DNA of 35,907 nt from Candidatus Saccharimonadales bacterium (lineage in GTDB: Bacteria > Patescibacteriota > Patescibacteriia > Patescibacteriales > UBA12465), in NCBI GenBank assembly GCA_035646675.1, contig DASROX010000025.1, positions 1 through 35,907 on the forward strand, read 5' to 3'. Below the pieces are notes generated by a model. The model saw only the letters and a program-made list of their open reading frames with translations, was not told where the DNA came from and ran no database searches. The translations under genes and the position numbers were made by a program. This document shows positions 283 through 35,907 of this stretch, piece after piece. The stretch's first letter is position 1. Every line of letters starts with the position of its first letter.

Positions 283-3200
283 ATGTATTTAGAAAAACTG
301 GAAATTCAAGGATTTAAATCTTTTGCCAATAAAAACAAAATAATCTTCTCCGGCATGTTAGACGACACCAAGCGCGGACTCACCGCCATTGTTGGTCCTA
401 ACGGCTCCGGTAAATCCAATGTCGCCGATGCTATCCGTTGGGCGCTCGGCGAACAAAGTATTAAAAGCTTAAGAGGTAAAAAAAGTGAAGATGTTATTTT
501 TTCCGGATCTGACCAAAAGAGTCAATTAAGTTTGGCTGAGGTATCACTCTTTTTAAATAATGAGGAAGTAATCAAAAAAAACGCCAAACAGCCCGAAGAA
601 ATTAAAAAGGAAAGTGATTTGGATCAAATAATTAGTAGCTGTGCGGAAATTGTTATCACCCGTCGTCTATTTCGTAATGGCGAGGGTGAATATTTATTAA
701 ATGGCAGCCGCGTACGCTTGTCAGATATTCAAATGCTACTCGCCAAAGCGAACTTCGGTCAAAAAACTTATAGTGTTATCGGCCAGGGAATGGTAGAAAA
801 CTTTTTAAGCTCTACGACCGCCGAACGCAAAGATTTTTTTGACGAAGCAACCGGCGTTAAACAATTTCAAATCAAACGTGATTCCGCTTTAAATAAATTG
901 GAAGCCAGTTATGAAAATCTCCAACAAGTTGACATGTTGCTGGTAGAAATTAGACCGCGACTTAAGAGTTTAACGAGACAAGTAGAAAAATTAAAACGCC
1001 GCGCCGATATTGAAACCGAACTGAAAAAAACCCAATTCAATTATTATGGTTTCCTGTGGCAAGATATTAATAAAAAGTTAGATACTTTTAACGCCCAGTT
1101 TTTAGATTTAGAAAAAATTAAAATTGAAAGAGAAAAAAAGCTGGAAAAACTAGGCGAAGAACTTAACAAAATTAGAACCACCGATAATTTTAGGGAAATA
1201 AATGAGCTTCAGCCGCGTCTGCGTAATTTAGAAAATCAAAAAGGACAATACCAAAAAAAATTATCCAAACTACAAGCCGAATTGGAAGTCCAATTAGAAA
1301 CTCAAGGGCAATTTGATGTTTCTTGGCTCAATAATAAAGCCGATGAATTGGGAGCCGACCTGGAAAAAATTGGTTTAGAAATTAATTCCTTAGAAAAAAG
1401 CCGTCCTAAATTAGAAGAAGAATCTTTGCTTGCCAAACTACAAGAAATAAATAAAGAAATTACGGGCAGTGAAGAAATCAAACGAACTATTAACCGTTTA
1501 GAGAATGAAAAATTTAATTTTAATAAACAAATTTCCAAATTAGAAGCGGTATTGGAAGCTAATCTGGAAGCTCAAGGCCAGTTTGATGTCTCTTGGCTCA
1601 GTAATAAACAAGAAGAATTAAGCTTGGAACTTAAAAAAATAGAAATTGAGACCAGCGAATTAAATCAAAACAATGATCATAAGAGCAGCCAAGAACTCCA
1701 AGAAAATTTAAACCACATCCAACAAGAGCTAACGACTTTAAACAAAGAGTTAGCCGCAATTAACGACAAAATTAAAGCGGCGGCCAAATCTGGAAGCAAA
1801 GATGAAAAAATCAGCCAAATAATAGAAGAGTTTTTAAACAAATTGGATGGCATTAATTCCACAGCTAACTTAGAGGAAGCTAAAAAATTAATTTTAGAAG
1901 CCAAAATAGATTTTAAAACTAAAATTAAAGCAACGCTCACCGGTGAAAGCGATGAAGATGCCCTCCGTATTCAAAAAATCCAACAAACTATTATCGAGCT
2001 AACTGAAAAACGCCAAGCAGTGAACGAGCATCTTAATGAAGAGCGCTTACGGCTCTCAACAATTAACGAACGTCTGCGATTAACTGCCGAAAAAGAAATC
2101 CAAATTAAAAGAGAGTTGTTTGATATTAAAACAAAACTGGAAAAAGCCGAAATAAAATTTGATGCCGGTAAAATAGAAACAGAAAAAATAATTTTAAATA
2201 AAAAACTGCTGGAAATTGAAAAAGAAATTACCAAACTAGAGTCATCTTATCAAGGAGAAATCTGGCAAGAGAAAAAACAAGCCACTTTAGAACAACTGCA
2301 AATTTGTCGTCTTAAGGATTCAGCCATTAACGAACGCTTAAAACTTTTAGAAGACAAAAAAAATCAAACCAACCAGGAATTAATTGATATTAAAAACAAA
2401 GTTGCCAAAAGCCAAATGAAATTTGACGCTTCCGGTATTGAAAAAGAAAAAACAGCCCTTAATAAATTACTGGAAGAAATCGGAATAGAGGCCACGACTA
2501 TTACTTCTAAATTAGAAGCTCTCAATCAAGATAAAGAAAAAGAAAAAGGACAAATGTTTGAATGCCAAAAAAATATTCAAGCGCTTCAAGAAGATCTTAA
2601 CACGGTCACCGAAAAACTAAATGGTCTTAAAATTGAATCAACCAGACAAGAAACTAAATTGGAAGATTTGGAAAATAATATCAGAAACGATGAACTGTCT
2701 ATTGGTGATATTCAAGCTCATCCGGTTGAAGGTAGCATCGATAATCTATCATACTGGCAAAAGATTCTCGCTAATAGCAAAAATCAACTAGAACAAATAG
2801 GTGGCCTTGATCCAGAAACCGAAAAAGAATACGAAGATACAAAAACTCGCTATGACTTCTTGAGCAATCAAACCGAGGACCTTAATCAAGCAGTCAAATC
2901 CTTAGAACAAATAATCTATGAGCTTGACGGTAATATCAAGAGTCGTTTTGACCAAGAATTTAAAATAATTTCCGAAAAATTTAATGATTATTTTAAAATT
3001 CTCTTTAGCGGCGGTTCCGCCAAAATAACTAAAATTCTAGTTGAAGATTTAGAGAAGGAAGATGCTAAAAATAATGGTAATAAATCAGAGGATATTAATC
3101 AGGGACTAACTGCCGCTGAAATAGAGCTGAAACGGATGCAGGAAGAAAAAATGAAAAAAATTAAATTCCTCAAAAAATACAACGCGGTTGGCTTAGCCGG

Positions 3201-3564
3201 CATTGAAATTCAAGCTACTCCTCCGGGCAAAAAAATTCAAACCGTCACTATGCTCTCCGGCGGCGAACGTGCTTTAACCGCTATCGCCCTTATCTGCGCC
3301 ATCATCAGCGCCAATCCATCTCCATTTGTAGTTTTAGATGAAGTTGACGCCGCTCTGGACGAATCTAATTCCGAACGCTTAGCGAGAATTTTAGATGACT
3401 TATCAGATAAAACTCAATTTATTGTTATTACTCATAACCGCGCTTCCATGCGTCGCGCTAGCATTCTTTACGGCGTCACCATGCAAGCCGATGGTGTCAG
3501 TAAGTTATTAAGCGTCAAATTAGACGAACTCCAAAAAGATAATAAAAATTTAGAAAAACTTTAA
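283..3564 (+). CDS. smc: SMC chromosome-condensation ATPase (atypical: no recognisable hinge domain)
   Basis: N-terminus LEIQGFKSF...GPNGSGKSN (Walker A). C-terminus LSGGERALTAIAL (signature) and FVVLDEVDAALD (Walker B). About 750 aa of K/E/L-rich heptad-like sequence lies between the two. Confidence 0.9.
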   Translation: MYLEKLEIQGFKSFANKNKIIFSGMLDDTKRGLTAIVGPNGSGKSNVADAIRWALGEQSIKSLRGKKSEDVIFSGSDQKSQLSLAEVSLFLNNEEVIKKNAKQPEEIKKESDLDQIISSCAEIVITRRLFRNGEGEYLLNGSRVRLSDIQMLLAKANFGQKTYSVIGQGMVENFLSSTTAERKDFFDEATGVKQFQIKRDSALNKLEASYENLQQVDMLLVEIRPRLKSLTRQVEKLKRRADIETELKKTQFNYYGFLWQDINKKLDTFNAQFLDLEKIKIEREKKLEKLGEELNKIRTTDNFREINELQPRLRNLENQKGQYQKKLSKLQAELEVQLETQGQFDVSWLNNKADELGADLEKIGLEINSLEKSRPKLEEESLLAKLQEINKEITGSEEIKRTINRLENEKFNFNKQISKLEAVLEANLEAQGQFDVSWLSNKQEELSLELKKIEIETSELNQNNDHKSSQELQENLNHIQQELTTLNKELAAINDKIKAAAKSGSKDEKISQIIEEFLNKLDGINSTANLEEAKKLILEAKIDFKTKIKATLTGESDEDALRIQKIQQTIIELTEKRQAVNEHLNEERLRLSTINERLRLTAEKEIQIKRELFDIKTKLEKAEIKFDAGKIETEKIILNKKLLEIEKEITKLESSYQGEIWQEKKQATLEQLQICRLKDSAINERLKLLEDKKNQTNQELIDIKNKVAKSQMKFDASGIEKEKTALNKLLEEIGIEATTITSKLEALNQDKEKEKGQMFECQKNIQALQEDLNTVTEKLNGLKIESTRQETKLEDLENNIRNDELSIGDIQAHPVEGSIDNLSYWQKILANSKNQLEQIGGLDPETEKEYEDTKTRYDFLSNQTEDLNQAVKSLEQIIYELDGNIKSRFDQEFKIISEKFNDYFKILFSGGSAKITKILVEDLEKEDAKNNGNKSEDINQGLTAAEIELKRMQEEKMKKIKFLKKYNAVGLAGIEIQATPPGKKIQTVTMLSGGERALTAIALICAIISANPSPFVVLDEVDAALDESNSERLARILDDLSDKTQFIVITHNRASMRRASILYGVTMQADGVSKLLSVKLDELQKDNKNLEKL
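1278..1670 (+). repeat. In-frame duplicated module in the SMC N-terminal arm (copies at ~1278-1400 and ~1548-1670, offset 270 nt = 90 aa)
   Basis: LEVQLETQGQFDVSWLNNKADELGADLEKIGLEINSLEKS versus LEANLEAQGQFDVSWLSNKQEELSLELKKIEIETSELNQ. The nucleotide strings attggaag...tcttggctca recur at 1281 and 1551. Confidence 0.85.
2056..2517 (+). repeat. In-frame duplicated module in the SMC C-terminal arm (copies at ~2056-2241 and ~2320-2517, offset 264 nt = 88 aa)
   Basis: STINERLRLTAEKEIQIKRELFDIKTKLEKAEIKFDAGKIETEKIILNKKLLEIE versus SAINERLKLLEDKKNQTNQELIDIKNKVAKSQMKFDASGIEKEKTALNKLLEEIG. Confidence 0.85.
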
Positions 3565-3642: not shown

Positions 3643-5163
3643 ATGGCTAGTAAAATATTATCGGCGGTTATTATCGGCATTGATGCCGAGCTCGTAGAAA
3701 TTGAAGCTTCACTAGGAGGCGGTGATTTTGGACAAATAATAATTGTGGGCTTACCGGATACGGCCGTATCCGAAGCTAAAGAAAGGGTTAGAAGCGCCAT
3801 TTTAAATAGTGGTTTCGAATTCCCAAAAAGGAAAATAACTATTAATCTAGCGCCAGCTGATTTAAAAAAGAGTGGCCCTATCTATGATTTACCAATAACC
3901 ATCAGTATTCTGGCTTTAAAATATAAATTTAATTTTGATTTTTCGAAATGTTTAATCGCGGGAGAACTGTCTTTAAGCGGAGAAGTGAGAAAAATAAAAG
4001 GAGCAATTTTAATGGCCATTAAAGCTAAGGAGAGCGGGTTGGATGCAATTTTTCTGCCACCAGAAAATATTCAAGAAGCTGGACTCGTCACTGGTCTTAA
4101 AATTTTTCCAGTTAACAACTTAAAACAATTAATTAAACATCTACTGGGCCAAGAAACAATTACTACGGCTAGTTATCAAATTTTTGAGACTAAACCAATA
4201 AATCTAATTCAATTCTCCGATATCAAGGGGCAAGAAAAAGCTAAACGCGCTTTAGAGATTGCCATCGCCGGCGGACACAACATTCTATTTAGCGGTCCTC
4301 CTGGCTCTGGAAAAACTATGTTAGCTAAAGCAGCGGCCAGTATTTTACCGCCTCTAAACACCTGGGAAAAACTAGAAATATCTAAAATCTACAGTGCTGC
4401 CAGTAATGTTTTGGGAAATAAAATAAGTTTTTCATTGCCGATAACTAGCCGTCCTTTCCGCTCACCACATCACAGCGCCTCTGCCGCCGCCCTTATCGGT
4501 GGGGGCTCTAAATGTCGCCCCGGAGAAATTTCCTTAGCTCACTTAGGAATTCTTTTCTTGGATGAATTTCCAGAATTCTCTCGTCAGGCCCTAGAAAGTT
4601 TACGACAACCCTTGGAAGAAGGAGCAATAACTATTAGCCGTGCCCAGGGAAATTTAAATTTACCAGCTCGTTTTATGCTAATTGCGGCCATGAATCTCTG
4701 CCCTTGTGGATTTCTAGGAATAAAGGGGAAAGAATGTACTTGCACAACCGAAAAAATTAAAAAATATCACCAAAAACTTTCTGGACCAATTCTAGACAGA
4801 ATTGATTTATATGTAGAAGTCATAAATCTCACACCGTCAGAATTAGAAAATATTGATTATCAGAATGACACCAAAATTATCAAAGACAGAATCAATGAAG
4901 CTCGTCAAAAACAGGCCCTTAGACTTAACCCGCTTTGCCCGGCCATTAATGCCATTATTCCTTCAAGCCAAATAAAAAATCTCTGCCAACTTGATAAATC
5001 TGGAATTGACCTAATAAACTTGGCAACTAATAGCTTGAATTTTTCTAACCGTTCGTACTTTAAAATTTTAAAAGTAGCCCGCACAATTGCTGATTTAGAT
5101 AAAAGTGAATCAGTTAAAGAGAGCCATCTCGCGGAGGCCTTACAATATCGAATCCGACTTTGA
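3643..5163 (+). CDS. comM: YifB/ComM family Mg-chelatase-like AAA+ ATPase
   Basis: N-terminal Lon-like domain (GLPDTAVSEAKERVRSAI, INLAPADLKKSGPIYDLPI). Walker A GPPGSGKTM and Walker B ILFLDEF. Cys cluster CPCG...CTC. Confidence 0.9.
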   Translation: MASKILSAVIIGIDAELVEIEASLGGGDFGQIIIVGLPDTAVSEAKERVRSAILNSGFEFPKRKITINLAPADLKKSGPIYDLPITISILALKYKFNFDFSKCLIAGELSLSGEVRKIKGAILMAIKAKESGLDAIFLPPENIQEAGLVTGLKIFPVNNLKQLIKHLLGQETITTASYQIFETKPINLIQFSDIKGQEKAKRALEIAIAGGHNILFSGPPGSGKTMLAKAAASILPPLNTWEKLEISKIYSAASNVLGNKISFSLPITSRPFRSPHHSASAAALIGGGSKCRPGEISLAHLGILFLDEFPEFSRQALESLRQPLEEGAITISRAQGNLNLPARFMLIAAMNLCPCGFLGIKGKECTCTTEKIKKYHQKLSGPILDRIDLYVEVINLTPSELENIDYQNDTKIIKDRINEARQKQALRLNPLCPAINAIIPSSQIKNLCQLDKSGIDLINLATNSLNFSNRSYFKILKVARTIADLDKSESVKESHLAEALQYRIRL

Positions 5164-6601: not shown

Positions 6602-7060
6602 ATGTTTAAAAAAACTATTGTAACTTTAATACTGGCCTCAATAATGTTTATTGGCGCCGTTAATATCGTAACGGCCGCCGGACTAGTTCCCGAAGCGAGC
6701 GGTAGCGCCTGCGATAAAGGCGATGCGACCTATTGTGGAAATTATACTCTTAATGACTTCATAAAGCTGGCAATTTTAGCCTCCCAATGGATATTGGGTA
6801 TTGTCGGTTCCTTATCACTGATAATGTTTATTTATGGCGGTTTTATGTTCCTAATTTCTTCCGGTTCTAGCGATAAGGTTGGGCAAGCCAAAAAAATCAT
6901 CATCGCTGCCGTTATTGGTTTAATTATTGTGTTCTCCAGTTATTTAATTATTAGATTTGTTACTGGTGCCTTGGGAGCTAATAGCGAATACCAGTTGGGT
7001 GCAAAATCAACTACTATCATCGAAGATGCGTCAACTATAAAATTACAACAACAGAACTAG
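6602..7060 (+). CDS. Divergent seventh member of the secreted two-helix pilin-like family
   Basis: Signal peptide (..NIVTA|AG), Cys pair (C37, C45), then hydrophobic helix - GGFMFLISSGSSDKVGQAKK - hydrophobic helix. Same architecture as 11549-14090, but WM becomes FL and GNE becomes GSS. Confidence 0.6.
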   Translation: MFKKTIVTLILASIMFIGAVNIVTAAGLVPEASGSACDKGDATYCGNYTLNDFIKLAILASQWILGIVGSLSLIMFIYGGFMFLISSGSSDKVGQAKKIIIAAVIGLIIVFSSYLIIRFVTGALGANSEYQLGAKSTTIIEDASTIKLQQQN

Positions 7061-27504: not shown

Positions 27505-27536
27505 AGTAAACAAAAACCTCGCATTGGCGAGGTTTT
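27505..27536 (-). terminator. Intrinsic terminator downstream of the GC-rich RNA candidate
   Basis: aaaacctcgc attg gcgaggtttt forms a 10-bp stem; on the minus strand it is followed by tttttgttt. Confidence 0.7.
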
Positions 27537-27560
27537 CATTTTAGTGGACCATAAGGGACT
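27532..27560 (-). repeat. Perfect 29-nt copy of the tRNA-Ala 3' end plus trailer
   Basis: gttttcattttagtggaccataagggact is identical to 27748-27776, at an offset of 216 bp. Confidence 0.95.
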
Positions 27561-27720
27561 CATCTCGCTTGTCGCCGCCAGAAGTGCGGCGACAGCACTC
27601 GTCCAGAGTTGGCGCCCGACCTGCTCCCAGAAGGTCGTCCGACGCTCGCTGATTCGCCTCGTCTTCCGACTCGACTCATGTCTCGCTTCCAACTAGTTCA
27701 AGTCCCATAAAACGTAATCC
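27545..27720 (-). ncRNA. Unclassified GC-rich structured RNA candidate, partly tRNA-Ala derived
   Basis: Sharp GC rise in an AT-rich context. Perfect 8-bp GC hairpin with a 7-nt loop (27571-27593). The ends pair (GGGACT / AGTCCC). The 3' end is identical to the tRNA-Ala acceptor 3' strand. Terminators lie on both sides. Strand inferred from the tRNA-like 3' end. Confidence 0.5.
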
Positions 27721-27750
27721 TAAAATAAAAAACCCTGCTTTCACAGAGTT
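27721..27750 (-). terminator. Intrinsic terminator after tRNA-Ala
   Basis: aaccctg / cagagtt stem (one mismatch); on the minus strand it is followed by ttttttatttta. Confidence 0.55.
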
Positions 27751-27776
27751 TTCATTTTAGTGGACCATAAGGGACT
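27748..27776 (-). repeat. Second copy of the 29-nt repeat (genuine tRNA-Ala 3' end plus trailer)
   Basis: Identical to 27532-27560. Confidence 0.95.
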
Positions 27777-27834
27777 TGAACCCTTGACCTCTTCCATGCC
27801 ATGGAAGCGCTCTAGCCAACTGAGCTAATGGCCC
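27761..27834 (-). tRNA. tRNA-Ala (anticodon GGC), no encoded CCA
   Basis: Reverse complement: gggccat tagctcagttggctagagc g cttcc-atggcat-ggaag aggtc aaggg-ttcaagt-ccctt atggtcc a. The G3:U70 Ala identity pair is present. Confidence 0.9.
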
Positions 27835-27846
27835 TTTCTTGTATAA

Positions 27847-27905
27847 ATGTTCCTTGAGGAACAAATATTTATTTTAACTATAGGATATGTTCCTTGAGGA
27901 ACAAA
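27847..27905. repeat. Two identical 19-nt units (27847-27865, 27887-27905), each a 6-bp palindromic hairpin/operator
   Basis: atgttccttgaggaacaaa occurs twice, 40 bp apart. TGTTCC ttga GGAACA. Located between the candidate promoter and the tRNA-Ala 5' end. Confidence 0.85.
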
Positions 27906-27945: not shown

Positions 27946-27973
27946 AGTATAGCGAACCCATAATTATTGTCAA
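27946..27973 (-). promoter_or_regulatory. Candidate promoter for tRNA-Ala
   Basis: Minus strand TTGACA (27973-27968), 16-nt spacer, TATACT (27951-27946). Confidence 0.5.
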
Positions 27974-28043: not shown

Positions 28044-28116
28044 GTGTTCCCACCAGGAGTCGAACCTGGATCTAGAACTTAGGAGGTTCTTGTTCTATCC
28101 ATTGAACCATGGGAAC
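28044..28116 (-). tRNA. tRNA-Arg (anticodon CCU)
   Basis: Reverse complement: gttccca tg gttc aatggata gaac a agaac-ctcctaa-gttct agat ccagg-ttcgact-cctgg tgggaac a. Confidence 0.9.
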
Positions 28117-33407: not shown

Positions 33408-33632
33408 TTAAGCTTTTATCCAAATAGTGCTCAAAGAAACGAGCACAAAAAGAGCGGCTAATATAATGGTGAGGATATGTAATTTTTTTTCTAGTCCTCT
33501 TTTGGTTAAATAAACTCCGCCACCGCCGCCACCAAACACCCCGCCGACACCGCCGCCGCGATTCTGTAGCAAAATAACTGTTGTTAAAACAATAGCGATA
33601 ACGATTTGAGCTATTTTAAACCAGAAAATCAT
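33408..33632 (-). CDS. secG: Preprotein translocase subunit SecG
   Basis: 74 aa with two TM helices flanking the Gly-rich loop LLQNRGGGVGGVFGGGGGG. Confidence 0.75.
   Translation of the reverse strand: MIFWFKIAQIVIAIVLTTVILLQNRGGGVGGVFGGGGGGVYLTKRGLEKKLHILTIILAALFVLVSLSTIWIKA

Positions 33633-35151: not shown

Positions 35152-35907
<756 letters not shown>

Follow-up and report, generated by a model that had tools for sequence, protein, structure and literature searches.

A conserved structured RNA domain behind tRNA-Ala(GGC) in a Saccharimonadales contig: a candidate miniature insertion module at a tRNA gene 3' end

The 35,907-nt stretch of Candidatus Saccharimonadales bacterium DNA analysed here (contig DASROX010000025.1 of assembly GCA_035646675.1, positions 1 to 35,907; hereafter the window) carries, directly behind an intact tRNA-Ala(GGC) gene, a GC-rich element of about 0.2 kb, which folds into a three-way junction and ends in a second, displaced copy of the tRNA 3' end. 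All coordinates given are window positions, and the element is read on the minus strand, i.e. in tRNA sense. Comparison with its homolog in a second species shows that the element is under selection and not decaying, and that the fold is specific to the tRNA-sense strand. The interpretation we favour, and hold with slightly better than even confidence, is that the locus represents a miniature insertion module that targets a tRNA gene at its 3' end and is in essence a single structured-RNA gene. The module leaves the tRNA intact together with a terminator; one structured domain of ~150 nt comes next, and after it the displaced acceptor 3' strand with the trailer and another terminator.

The tRNA-Ala(GGC) gene (27834..27761, minus strand), identified by ARAGORN and scoring 64.8 bits with the Rfam tRNA model, is both the target and the partner of the module. 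Its last 16 nt, corresponding to tRNA positions 58-73, form together with 13 nt of trailer a 29-mer, AGTCCCTTATGGTCCACTAAAATGAAAAC, of which the window holds exactly two copies, at 27748-27776 (copy 1) and 27532-27560 (copy 2), none of 100 shuffles giving any match. A terminator scan places terminator 1 directly 3' of the tRNA (27727..27753, with a hairpin at 27748-27733 and then a T run). A 20-nt AT-rich spacer (27707..27726) follows, which presents a -10-like TAGGAT at 27722-27717, 10 nt before the first helix of the element. Directly 3' of the GC-rich stretch 27706-27555 come UUAUGGUCCA and the same 13-nt trailer, and then terminator 2 (27508..27541; hairpin CCTCGC-CAAT-GCGAGG at 27532-27517 and a T run, 15 pairs in the scan), which is stronger than the modest terminator 1. 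Once the terminators are included, the direct repeat reaches 49 nt at 84% identity. The T-loop and T-stem 3' strand also recur in inverted form, 27696-27709 being 93% complementary to 27768-27781 over 14 nt. A first-pass annotation, made from the letters of the window, had already pointed out most of these features, and the measurements agree with it on the GC-rich island at 27545-27720 amid AT-rich flanks (GC of 0.61-0.69 against a window mean of 0.36, the contig being ~36% GC overall), on the bracketing terminator-like hairpins of the minus strand (27753..27728 and 27541..27508), on the 29-nt identity and the inverted T-loop string, and on the presence of an 8-bp GC hairpin, a GGGACT/AGTCCC pairing and two junk-like open frames.

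The evidence that the GC-rich stretch has a conserved RNA-like structure comes from comparison. Related loci were collected with the 23-nt 3' end of tRNA-Ala, taking one genome per species, which yielded 119 loci (labelled L below). L036, which shares its contig with L130, has behind this tRNA a terminator and next an 84.6% identical GC-rich copy, likewise ending in a tRNA 3' fragment; these two copies define type A. Both regions share the order RNase J, DAGK-like, bactofilin, tRNA-Arg, tRNA-Ala, element and, further downstream, TrxR. Synonymous sites are saturated between them, the four-fold degenerate sites being 32.5% identical (n=379) and the proteins 66-82%. Of the 26 columns that differ within the element, 14 belong to seven compensatory pairs, two are wobble-compatible, 10 are unpaired and none breaks a pair. 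The consensus fold obtained from the two sequences with RNAalifold comprises 46 pairs, seven of them compensatory, and all of its cells (100%) hold a standard pair, a share that falls to 36-50% once the 3' partners are shifted by 1-3 columns. Base pairs kept by compensatory change are the general mark of a conserved structured RNA, and type A shows them in its two sequences. As the folding energy of the single sequences is no better than that of shuffles (z = -1.2 and -1.8, not significant), it does not by itself separate them, and the support for structure comes from the comparison. Concerning the strand, G-U pairs occur solely in tRNA sense, with ~14 G-U cells against at most 2 A.C cells. 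The earlier proposal of a structured non-coding RNA (ncRNA) with a tRNA-derived 3' end is therefore upheld as regards conserved structure and strand. The two open frames are non-coding: the differences fall 5/9/9 over the codon positions, with no third-position bias, which makes the frames a by-product of GC richness.

The type A core runs from P1 to P1' (27555..27706). P1, an inverted repeat, pairs 27706-27700 (5' strand GGGACUU) with 27561-27555 in both homologs; its 3' side is the displaced T-stem 3' strand and T-loop, and its 5' strand lies within the upstream antisense copy of the T-loop and T-stem, which reaches 27709. The P2 domain (27607..27694) is closed by the pairing of 27694-27689 with 27612-27607, which shows an A-U to G-C change between the homologs, and encloses two hairpins: P3 (27686-27644), with a GGAA tetraloop, three C[GA]G/C[GA]G tandem G.A loops and two compensatory pairs, and P4 (27641-27613), with three compensatory pairs. 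P5 (27601-27564) is an 8-bp GC stem with a 7-nt loop, set on a CGAG/CGAG loop and displaying a U-A to C-G change. In all, four 2x2 internal loops of the form C[GA]G/C[GA]G are invariant in both species, and a fifth is GA/GR. According to the alignment fold, repeat copy 2 is shared out between three parts, with 27560-27555 inside the P1 3' strand, 27554-27545 forming a single-stranded tail that corresponds to the acceptor 3' strand and the discriminator, and 27544-27532 being the trailer. This fold gives another meaning to three motifs that had been read as tRNA relics or insertion scars. The D-loop-like AGTTGG is the 5' strand of the long-range P2, covarying with CCAACT; GGATTAC, thought to pair with the acceptor strand, is not conserved in the L036 homolog; and the direct repeat AAGCGAGA..GAGTC, taken for a target-site duplication, consists in both copies of conserved strands of CGAG/CGAG loops and P1.

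The comparison with closer genomes bears on how the element reached its position. The closest relatives (L120, L107, L141 and L151-155, with a DAGK-like protein 91-92% and an RNase J 95% identical to those of the window) have the same order as the window, tRNA-Arg, tRNA-Ala, NDT-like, hydrolase and TrxR, and are shorter there by exactly 216 nt. Alignment with L141, L120 and L107 reveals a clean 216-nt indel, filled in the window (27532..27747) and empty in these relatives, the register of which is ambiguous owing to the repetition of the unit formed by 29-mer, hairpin and T run. The first-pass suggestion of an insertion into a duplicated tRNA-Ala stands in outline as regards an insertion with a duplicated tRNA 3' end, and fails as regards the target-site-duplication scar. 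An independent assembly, L001, is identical to the window throughout the region. L142, from the same clade as the relatives of the window, has instead a different module, type B, and its alignment with the empty L043 displays a clean ~180-nt insertion with ~19-nt flanking repeats, CAAGTCCCTTATGGTCCAC, and with the native CCAGC-type terminator displaced to the far side of type B. As read from these alignments, such an arrangement is classically left by integration into a tRNA gene between T-loop and 3' end, in the light of what is generally known of integrase sublocation classes. Hence, orthologous empty sites exist both for the window and for L142, and direct repeats made of the tRNA 3' segment flank the insert in the window as well as in L016, L036, L142 and L028.

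The terminators add to this picture. In L036 the order is tRNA, terminator with type A, and ACCTCACCTGCGTGAGGT terminator with type B, from which the unit nearest the tRNA, type A, would be the newest and type B the older, which is how repeated integration would arrange them. The type B unit has an 18-nt terminator, ACCTCACCTGCGTGAGGT, identical in L142, L036, L065 and L055 despite synonymous saturation; it follows the type A element in L036 and precedes type B elsewhere. Terminator 2 of the window, ACCTCGCCAATGCGAGGT, resembles it at 13/18 positions, with one compensated pair, and may be the remnant of a lost type B unit.

Modules of the same layout are found behind other tRNAs. Behind tRNA-Ala(GGC), type B is found in L016, L065, L095 and L142, and in L036 as the second member of a tandem with type A; L028 has it behind tRNA-Arg(CCT); the full-length copies occupy 5861-5992 in L016, 897-1026 in L036, 2803-2926 in L142, 106-229 in L095 and 379-506 in L028. 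Aligning these five, with L065 left out since it is cut by the locus end, gives a GC-rich, Y-shaped three-way junction of 35 pairs, 13 of which are compensatory, a value that 0/500 shuffles reach. Type F, behind tRNA-Cys in L028 (3397-3561), scores 23 bits with the type A model (E ~1e-5 for the region that was searched), shares the P1-P2[P3,P4]-P5 layout and gives z = -4.9 when its folding is set against that of shuffles, far better than these. Shorter versions stand behind tRNA-Gly (L036) and tRNA-Ala(CGC) (L110). Types A, B and F and the short tRNA-Gly version share one order of parts: tRNA, hairpin, short AT-rich spacer, reverse complement of the T-loop and T-stem 3' strand, GC-rich core, T-loop remnant, T-stem and acceptor 3' strands, discriminator, a few nucleotides of trailer, and terminator. 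The hairpin after the tRNA is an intrinsic terminator in most modules; that of tRNA-Arg in L028 lacks a T run and is probably not one. Types C and D and the L110 version show this layout in part.

P1 is re-tailored to the partner tRNA, each P1 being built from the T arm of that very tRNA. Its strands are AAGGGACUUG / CAAGUCCCUU for Ala, GCAGGAAUCGA / UCGAUUCCUGC for Arg, where the type B copy behind tRNA-Arg of L028 has GCAGGAATCGA / TCGATTCCTGC, and GGUGGGAGU / ACUCUCGCC in type F behind tRNA-Cys. In the last case P1 stays paired through G.U pairs in spite of a fragment that has diverged from the tRNA, which points to selection on the helix itself. The tRNA-like tail, for its part, is probably historical rather than essential, given that the type B copies of L036 and L095 have lost it, together with part of P1, and keep their internal arms. 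Hexamers that resemble a -10 box (TATATT, TATAGT and TAAGAT) are placed 6-11 nt before P1 in other copies, so that the spacer box is a possible promoter for the RNA.

Several smaller arrangements were met with at related tRNA loci. In L110 (2170-2320), 30-nt GC-rich double hairpins (TCAGCC..GGCTGA and CCCGCC..GGCGGG) sit in the T-loop of displaced tRNA 3' fragments, as two tandem units, one of them with the 3' end of a different tRNA; a similar double hairpin is found in L115 (minus strand) after a displaced 17-nt tRNA-Ala 5' fragment, upstream of the intact gene. A GC-rich motif, GGTTCGACYTGCCCGCCCG...GACGAAGGAGGG, common to L028 (~510-590) and L115 (between tRNA-Arg and tRNA-Ala), may be another structured element. 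Type D, conserved in three species (L066 5981-6160, L040 and L106), is an AT-rich insert of ~160 nt with a CTTGAA left arm retained and, at its end, the tRNA-Ala 3' end once more; its flank past the second copy matches the trailer directly 3' of tRNA-Ala in L096. In L083 (1190-1260) and L090 (2860-2925), the intact tRNA-Arg(CCT) gene is immediately followed by an incomplete tandem repeat of itself, which spans the D arm through the 3' end. In the clade of L143-L150, an open reading frame (ORF) for a KTI12/AAA_33-like kinase starts 3 nt past the tRNA-Ala discriminator, with no terminator between.

In the mechanism that we propose, the module would recombine into the stretch of the tRNA gene from T-loop to 3' end, where tRNA-targeting integrative elements are known to do so. 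As it encodes no protein, it would depend on a recombinase provided in trans. The domain would then be transcribed as a small RNA of ~160-200 nt, starting either from the weak -10-like box of the spacer or by read-through of terminator 1, with its 3' end at the terminator of the displaced tRNA fragment, likely terminator 2. The RNA is probably a protein-binding scaffold, as suggested by the stacked CGAG/CGAG tandem G.A loops, the GGAA loop and several GGA motifs. A bolder version, which we entertain as a rather doubtful extension, sees the modules as protein-less mobile elements, a bacterial counterpart of short interspersed nuclear elements (SINEs) or integron cassettes, parasitising the tRNA genes of Patescibacteria by way of a folded target mimic. 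The RNA, or a folded single strand, would offer P1 as a double-stranded mimic of the T arm to a host recombinase or reverse transcriptase (RT), so that a unit of ~200 bp, nothing but a structured-RNA gene, could steer itself into the tRNA gene it matches, restoring the tRNA and providing it with a terminator. Retargeting would take place by capture of the 3' fragment of a new tRNA, after which P1 would be repaired by compensatory change.

A number of observations weigh against a mobile module with a transcribed RNA. With two type A sequences, the shuffle control stands at 10/500. Type A is seen in two species only and is apparently single-copy: with a covariance model, just the window and L036 copies score high; searching metagenomes for exact matches to a type A-conserved 20-mer returned the L036 contig and two chance matches in actinobacterial coding sequence; and looking up bactofilin homologs gave empty sites and one extra type B copy, with no further type A. 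The 216-nt insert holds no credible ORF, and hence no integrase of its own, and no integrase, RT or transposase domain was found among the 20 longer window ORFs scanned. No excised form, attP or copy appeared in phage, plasmid or IMG/VR collections, where BLAST against phages and plasmids gave noise only and scans of viral contigs with type A and B words and with a degenerate type B pattern gave chance GC-rich matches or none. There is no double-stranded dyad, as of a recombinase core, immediately left of the displaced T-loop. The -10-like hexamers are weak evidence for a promoter, the spacers being AT-rich. Finally, the hairpin of terminator 1 is orthologous to the sole terminator of the relatives without the element, by which a simple attL/attR reading needs a secondary deletion in those relatives, with loss of the spacer, type A, the fragment and terminator 2 from one T run to the other; the alternative is an entry of the module past the terminator.

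An alternative without any mobile step deserves serious attention even if we consider it unlikely: the element would be a host small-RNA gene derived from a local tandem duplicate of the tRNA 3' end and its terminator, vertically inherited and frequently lost, with gene conversion keeping the tail identical and the P1 5' strand co-evolving. That the repeat unit spans 29-mer, hairpin and T run accords with such an origin, and so do the trailers, which are identical or nearly so within a genome (13/13 in the window, 10/11 in L036) and differ between genomes, a pattern that suggests recent local duplication or ongoing gene conversion. The single-copy element among housekeeping genes, with no mobility genes nearby, the strong purifying selection on the fold and the type F P1 kept by G.U pairs after drift of the fragment fit it equally. 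However, the same core family stands behind different tRNAs with P1 rebuilt each time, for which the local origin would have to recur, and the distribution is patchy, the closest relatives being devoid of type A and a relative at neutral saturation having it. Also against it, different types occur in tandem at one tRNA (L036), and the 18-nt type B terminator is identical in the saturated hosts L142, L036, L065 and L055.

An improbable alternative is that the fold acts as single-stranded DNA, the P1 hairpin mimicking the T-arm segment of the tRNA for a host tyrosine recombinase, in the manner of CTX-phi attP(+), which mimics dif, and of folded integron attC sites, and the GC-rich branches merely stabilising a folded attachment site. 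In type B, tRNA positions ~56-67 recur in the P1 5' strand as an exact reverse complement, as do positions 57-63 in type A, and this strand differs from one target tRNA to the next; the AT-rich type D also keeps its CTTGAA left arm, the module has no protein gene, and CGAG/CGAG tandem G.A motifs are stable in DNA too, all of which would suit such a role. Nevertheless, the elaborate, conserved three-way junction and the many G-U pairs (G.T in DNA) fit RNA better, and the type B arms are kept after decay of P1 in L095 and L036, hence they are not mere support for it; we know, moreover, of no source of single-stranded DNA and of no recombinase for this process.

That the locus might be a decaying tRNA-Ala pseudogene or integration scar, without function and with its structure a by-product of GC content, is very improbable. 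The folding energy of the window sequence (z = -1.2) and the degenerate copies and solo left arms seen elsewhere (L055, L016, L049) could be taken that way, but the 85% identity maintained across neutral saturation with every paired change compensated, together with four invariant tandem G.A loops, tells against it. As a tRNA or tRNA pseudogene the element is also ruled out directly, since only positions 58-73 are present, ARAGORN in standard, intron and low-threshold modes finds just the true tRNA-Ala, and the Rfam tRNA model (RF00005) has no match in 27545-27725 at E<=10.

We give next to no credence to a leader or attenuator of the NDT-like/hydrolase operon or to a known RNA class (transfer-messenger RNA (tmRNA), signal recognition particle (SRP) RNA, 6S, RNase P or retron msr/msd), for although the element lies ~60-100 nt upstream of the NDT-like start codon and its closing stem with internal hairpins recalls retron topology, a strong terminator separates element and gene, the upstream regions of NDT-like homologs are unrelated, relatives keep the gene with its conserved -10 box (27488-27483 in the window, where the gene thus has its own) without the element, no NDT-like gene lies downstream of the L036 copy, no Rfam match is obtained at E = 10, the tmRNA and intron modes of ARAGORN are negative, and no RT is encoded by the scanned window ORFs. 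The operon-leader idea of the first-pass annotation is in this way set aside, and its failure to recognise a known family is borne out. Regarding the individual candidates, an operon leader or riboswitch was rejected because the element has no conserved position upstream of homologous genes, the NDT-like homologs sitting in unrelated contexts (homolog search and three contigs). A retron ncRNA was discarded on the absence of an RT among the neighbours and on the relatives that retain the NDT-like gene without the element. For tmRNA, ARAGORN -m at a 60% threshold and the Rfam tmRNA model were negative, and GGATTAC is not conserved. Comparison by eye with the K-turn, C/D box, SRP helix 8, the hammerhead core and retrons found none that fits the fold. 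A MITE (a miniature transposable element with inverted repeats) or insertion-sequence derivative was excluded, the inverted repeat being target-derived and varying with the tRNA, and single copies being present in the window and in the L036 metagenome contig set. With Rfam 15, neither the window (at gathering scores and at E<=10) nor seven related loci with types B-G (E<=0.5) matched a family; beyond the tRNAs, the output was terminator-driven noise below threshold. Sub-threshold matches to 'Plastid-ycf2 5'UTR' at 28044-28116 and 27760-27834 (plus strand) are artefacts of antisense tRNAs.

As to the surroundings, the element lies among genes for an NDT-like protein, Ser_hydrolase, TrxR and bactofilin, and tRNA-Arg(CCT) (28116..28045, minus strand; ARAGORN and Rfam) precedes tRNA-Ala. 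In the 5' leader of tRNA-Ala there are two identical palindromes, ATGTTCCTTGAGGAACAAA, at 27847-27865 and 27887-27905 (also 27946-27973), downstream of a near-consensus promoter-like site, TTGACA-16-TATACT. Most of the related loci (L120, L107, L043, L053, L078, L112 and L130) have palindromes of the form TGTTCC-N4-GGAACA upstream of tRNA-Ala, which may serve as an operator or form a leader hairpin. The remaining short GC-rich islands of the window (351-460, 3221-3330, 4431-4550, 6631-6750 and 33481-33590) all fall within coding genes, among them SMC and a Mg-chelatase-like gene, and are not copies of the element. The 5' half of a bacterial 16S rRNA gene occupies 35152-35907 and runs past the window end (726 bits).

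Should the interpretation as a miniature insertion module be correct, Patescibacteria possess tiny tRNA-linked modules, each with one elaborately folded RNA and no protein gene, and at least two new RNA architectures supported by covariation (types A/F and B) are added to a phylum with largely unexplored ncRNAs. They would also build a helix, recurrently, from the displaced T arm of a tRNA and re-tailor it to each partner. This T-arm helix points to an unusual integration mechanism, by means of a folded target mimic, or to a functional link with tRNA metabolism. For annotation, a tRNA 3' end found a second time, or a GC-rich island behind a tRNA gene, should in these genomes not be taken simply for a prophage scar. 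Integration into tRNA genes and structured ncRNAs are each already familiar; for a ~0.2-kb protein-less module containing nothing but a covariation-supported RNA with a re-targetable T-arm helix to close it, no precedent was found in Rfam or in the full-text papers searched.

Among known systems, the integrative elements that target tRNA genes (prophages, integrative and conjugative elements and genomic islands with tyrosine integrases, of the T-loop sublocation) share with the module direct repeats from the T-loop to the 3' end and slightly beyond, a regenerated tRNA with the old 3' fragment displaced downstream, empty orthologous sites and accumulation in tandem. They measure 5-100 kb, whereas the module has ~0.2 kb and neither an integrase nor any other gene; its sole cargo is a structured RNA with a closing helix from the displaced T arm, and it has no double-stranded dyad core beside the crossover region. 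The attP(+) site of CTX-phi, used by XerCD, and the attC sites of integrons resemble the module in that inverted, target-like copies form a hairpin that mimics a double-stranded target, structure is kept above sequence, the branched centre is variable and a recombinase of their own is unnecessary. The target of the module is, unlike theirs, a tRNA T arm and not dif or attI, it has no filamentous phage or integron context, and the analysis brought up no sign of single-stranded DNA or of Xer or IntI involvement. tRNA-like and tRNA-derived RNAs (tmRNA, YrlA and Y-RNA-like RNAs, viral tRNA-like structures, mascRNA and SINEs) likewise join tRNA-derived sequence to a structured domain that is not tRNA. 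In the module the tRNA-derived parts are the T-stem, the acceptor 3' strand and the discriminator; unlike those RNAs, it lacks the T-loop as such (zipped into a helix), the acceptor 5' strand, the D arm and the anticodon arm, it has no Rfam or ARAGORN match, and its tail is dispensable in some sister copies. Rickettsia palindromic elements, the GC clusters of yeast mitochondria and bacterial MITEs are also short, GC-rich, folding inserts of AT-rich genomes, with presence/absence polymorphism and terminal inverted repeats, but the inverted repeats of the module are target-derived, it is apparently single-copy and its three-way junction is kept by covariation. Lastly, retron msr/msd, the bridge RNA of IS110 and the omega RNA of TnpB/IscB are similar in their ~150-200 nt, their closing stem and their possession of sequence that matches the insertion target. 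Those RNAs have an RT, recombinase or nuclease adjacent, which the module does not, and its target-matching segments, instead of lying in loops, pair with each other.

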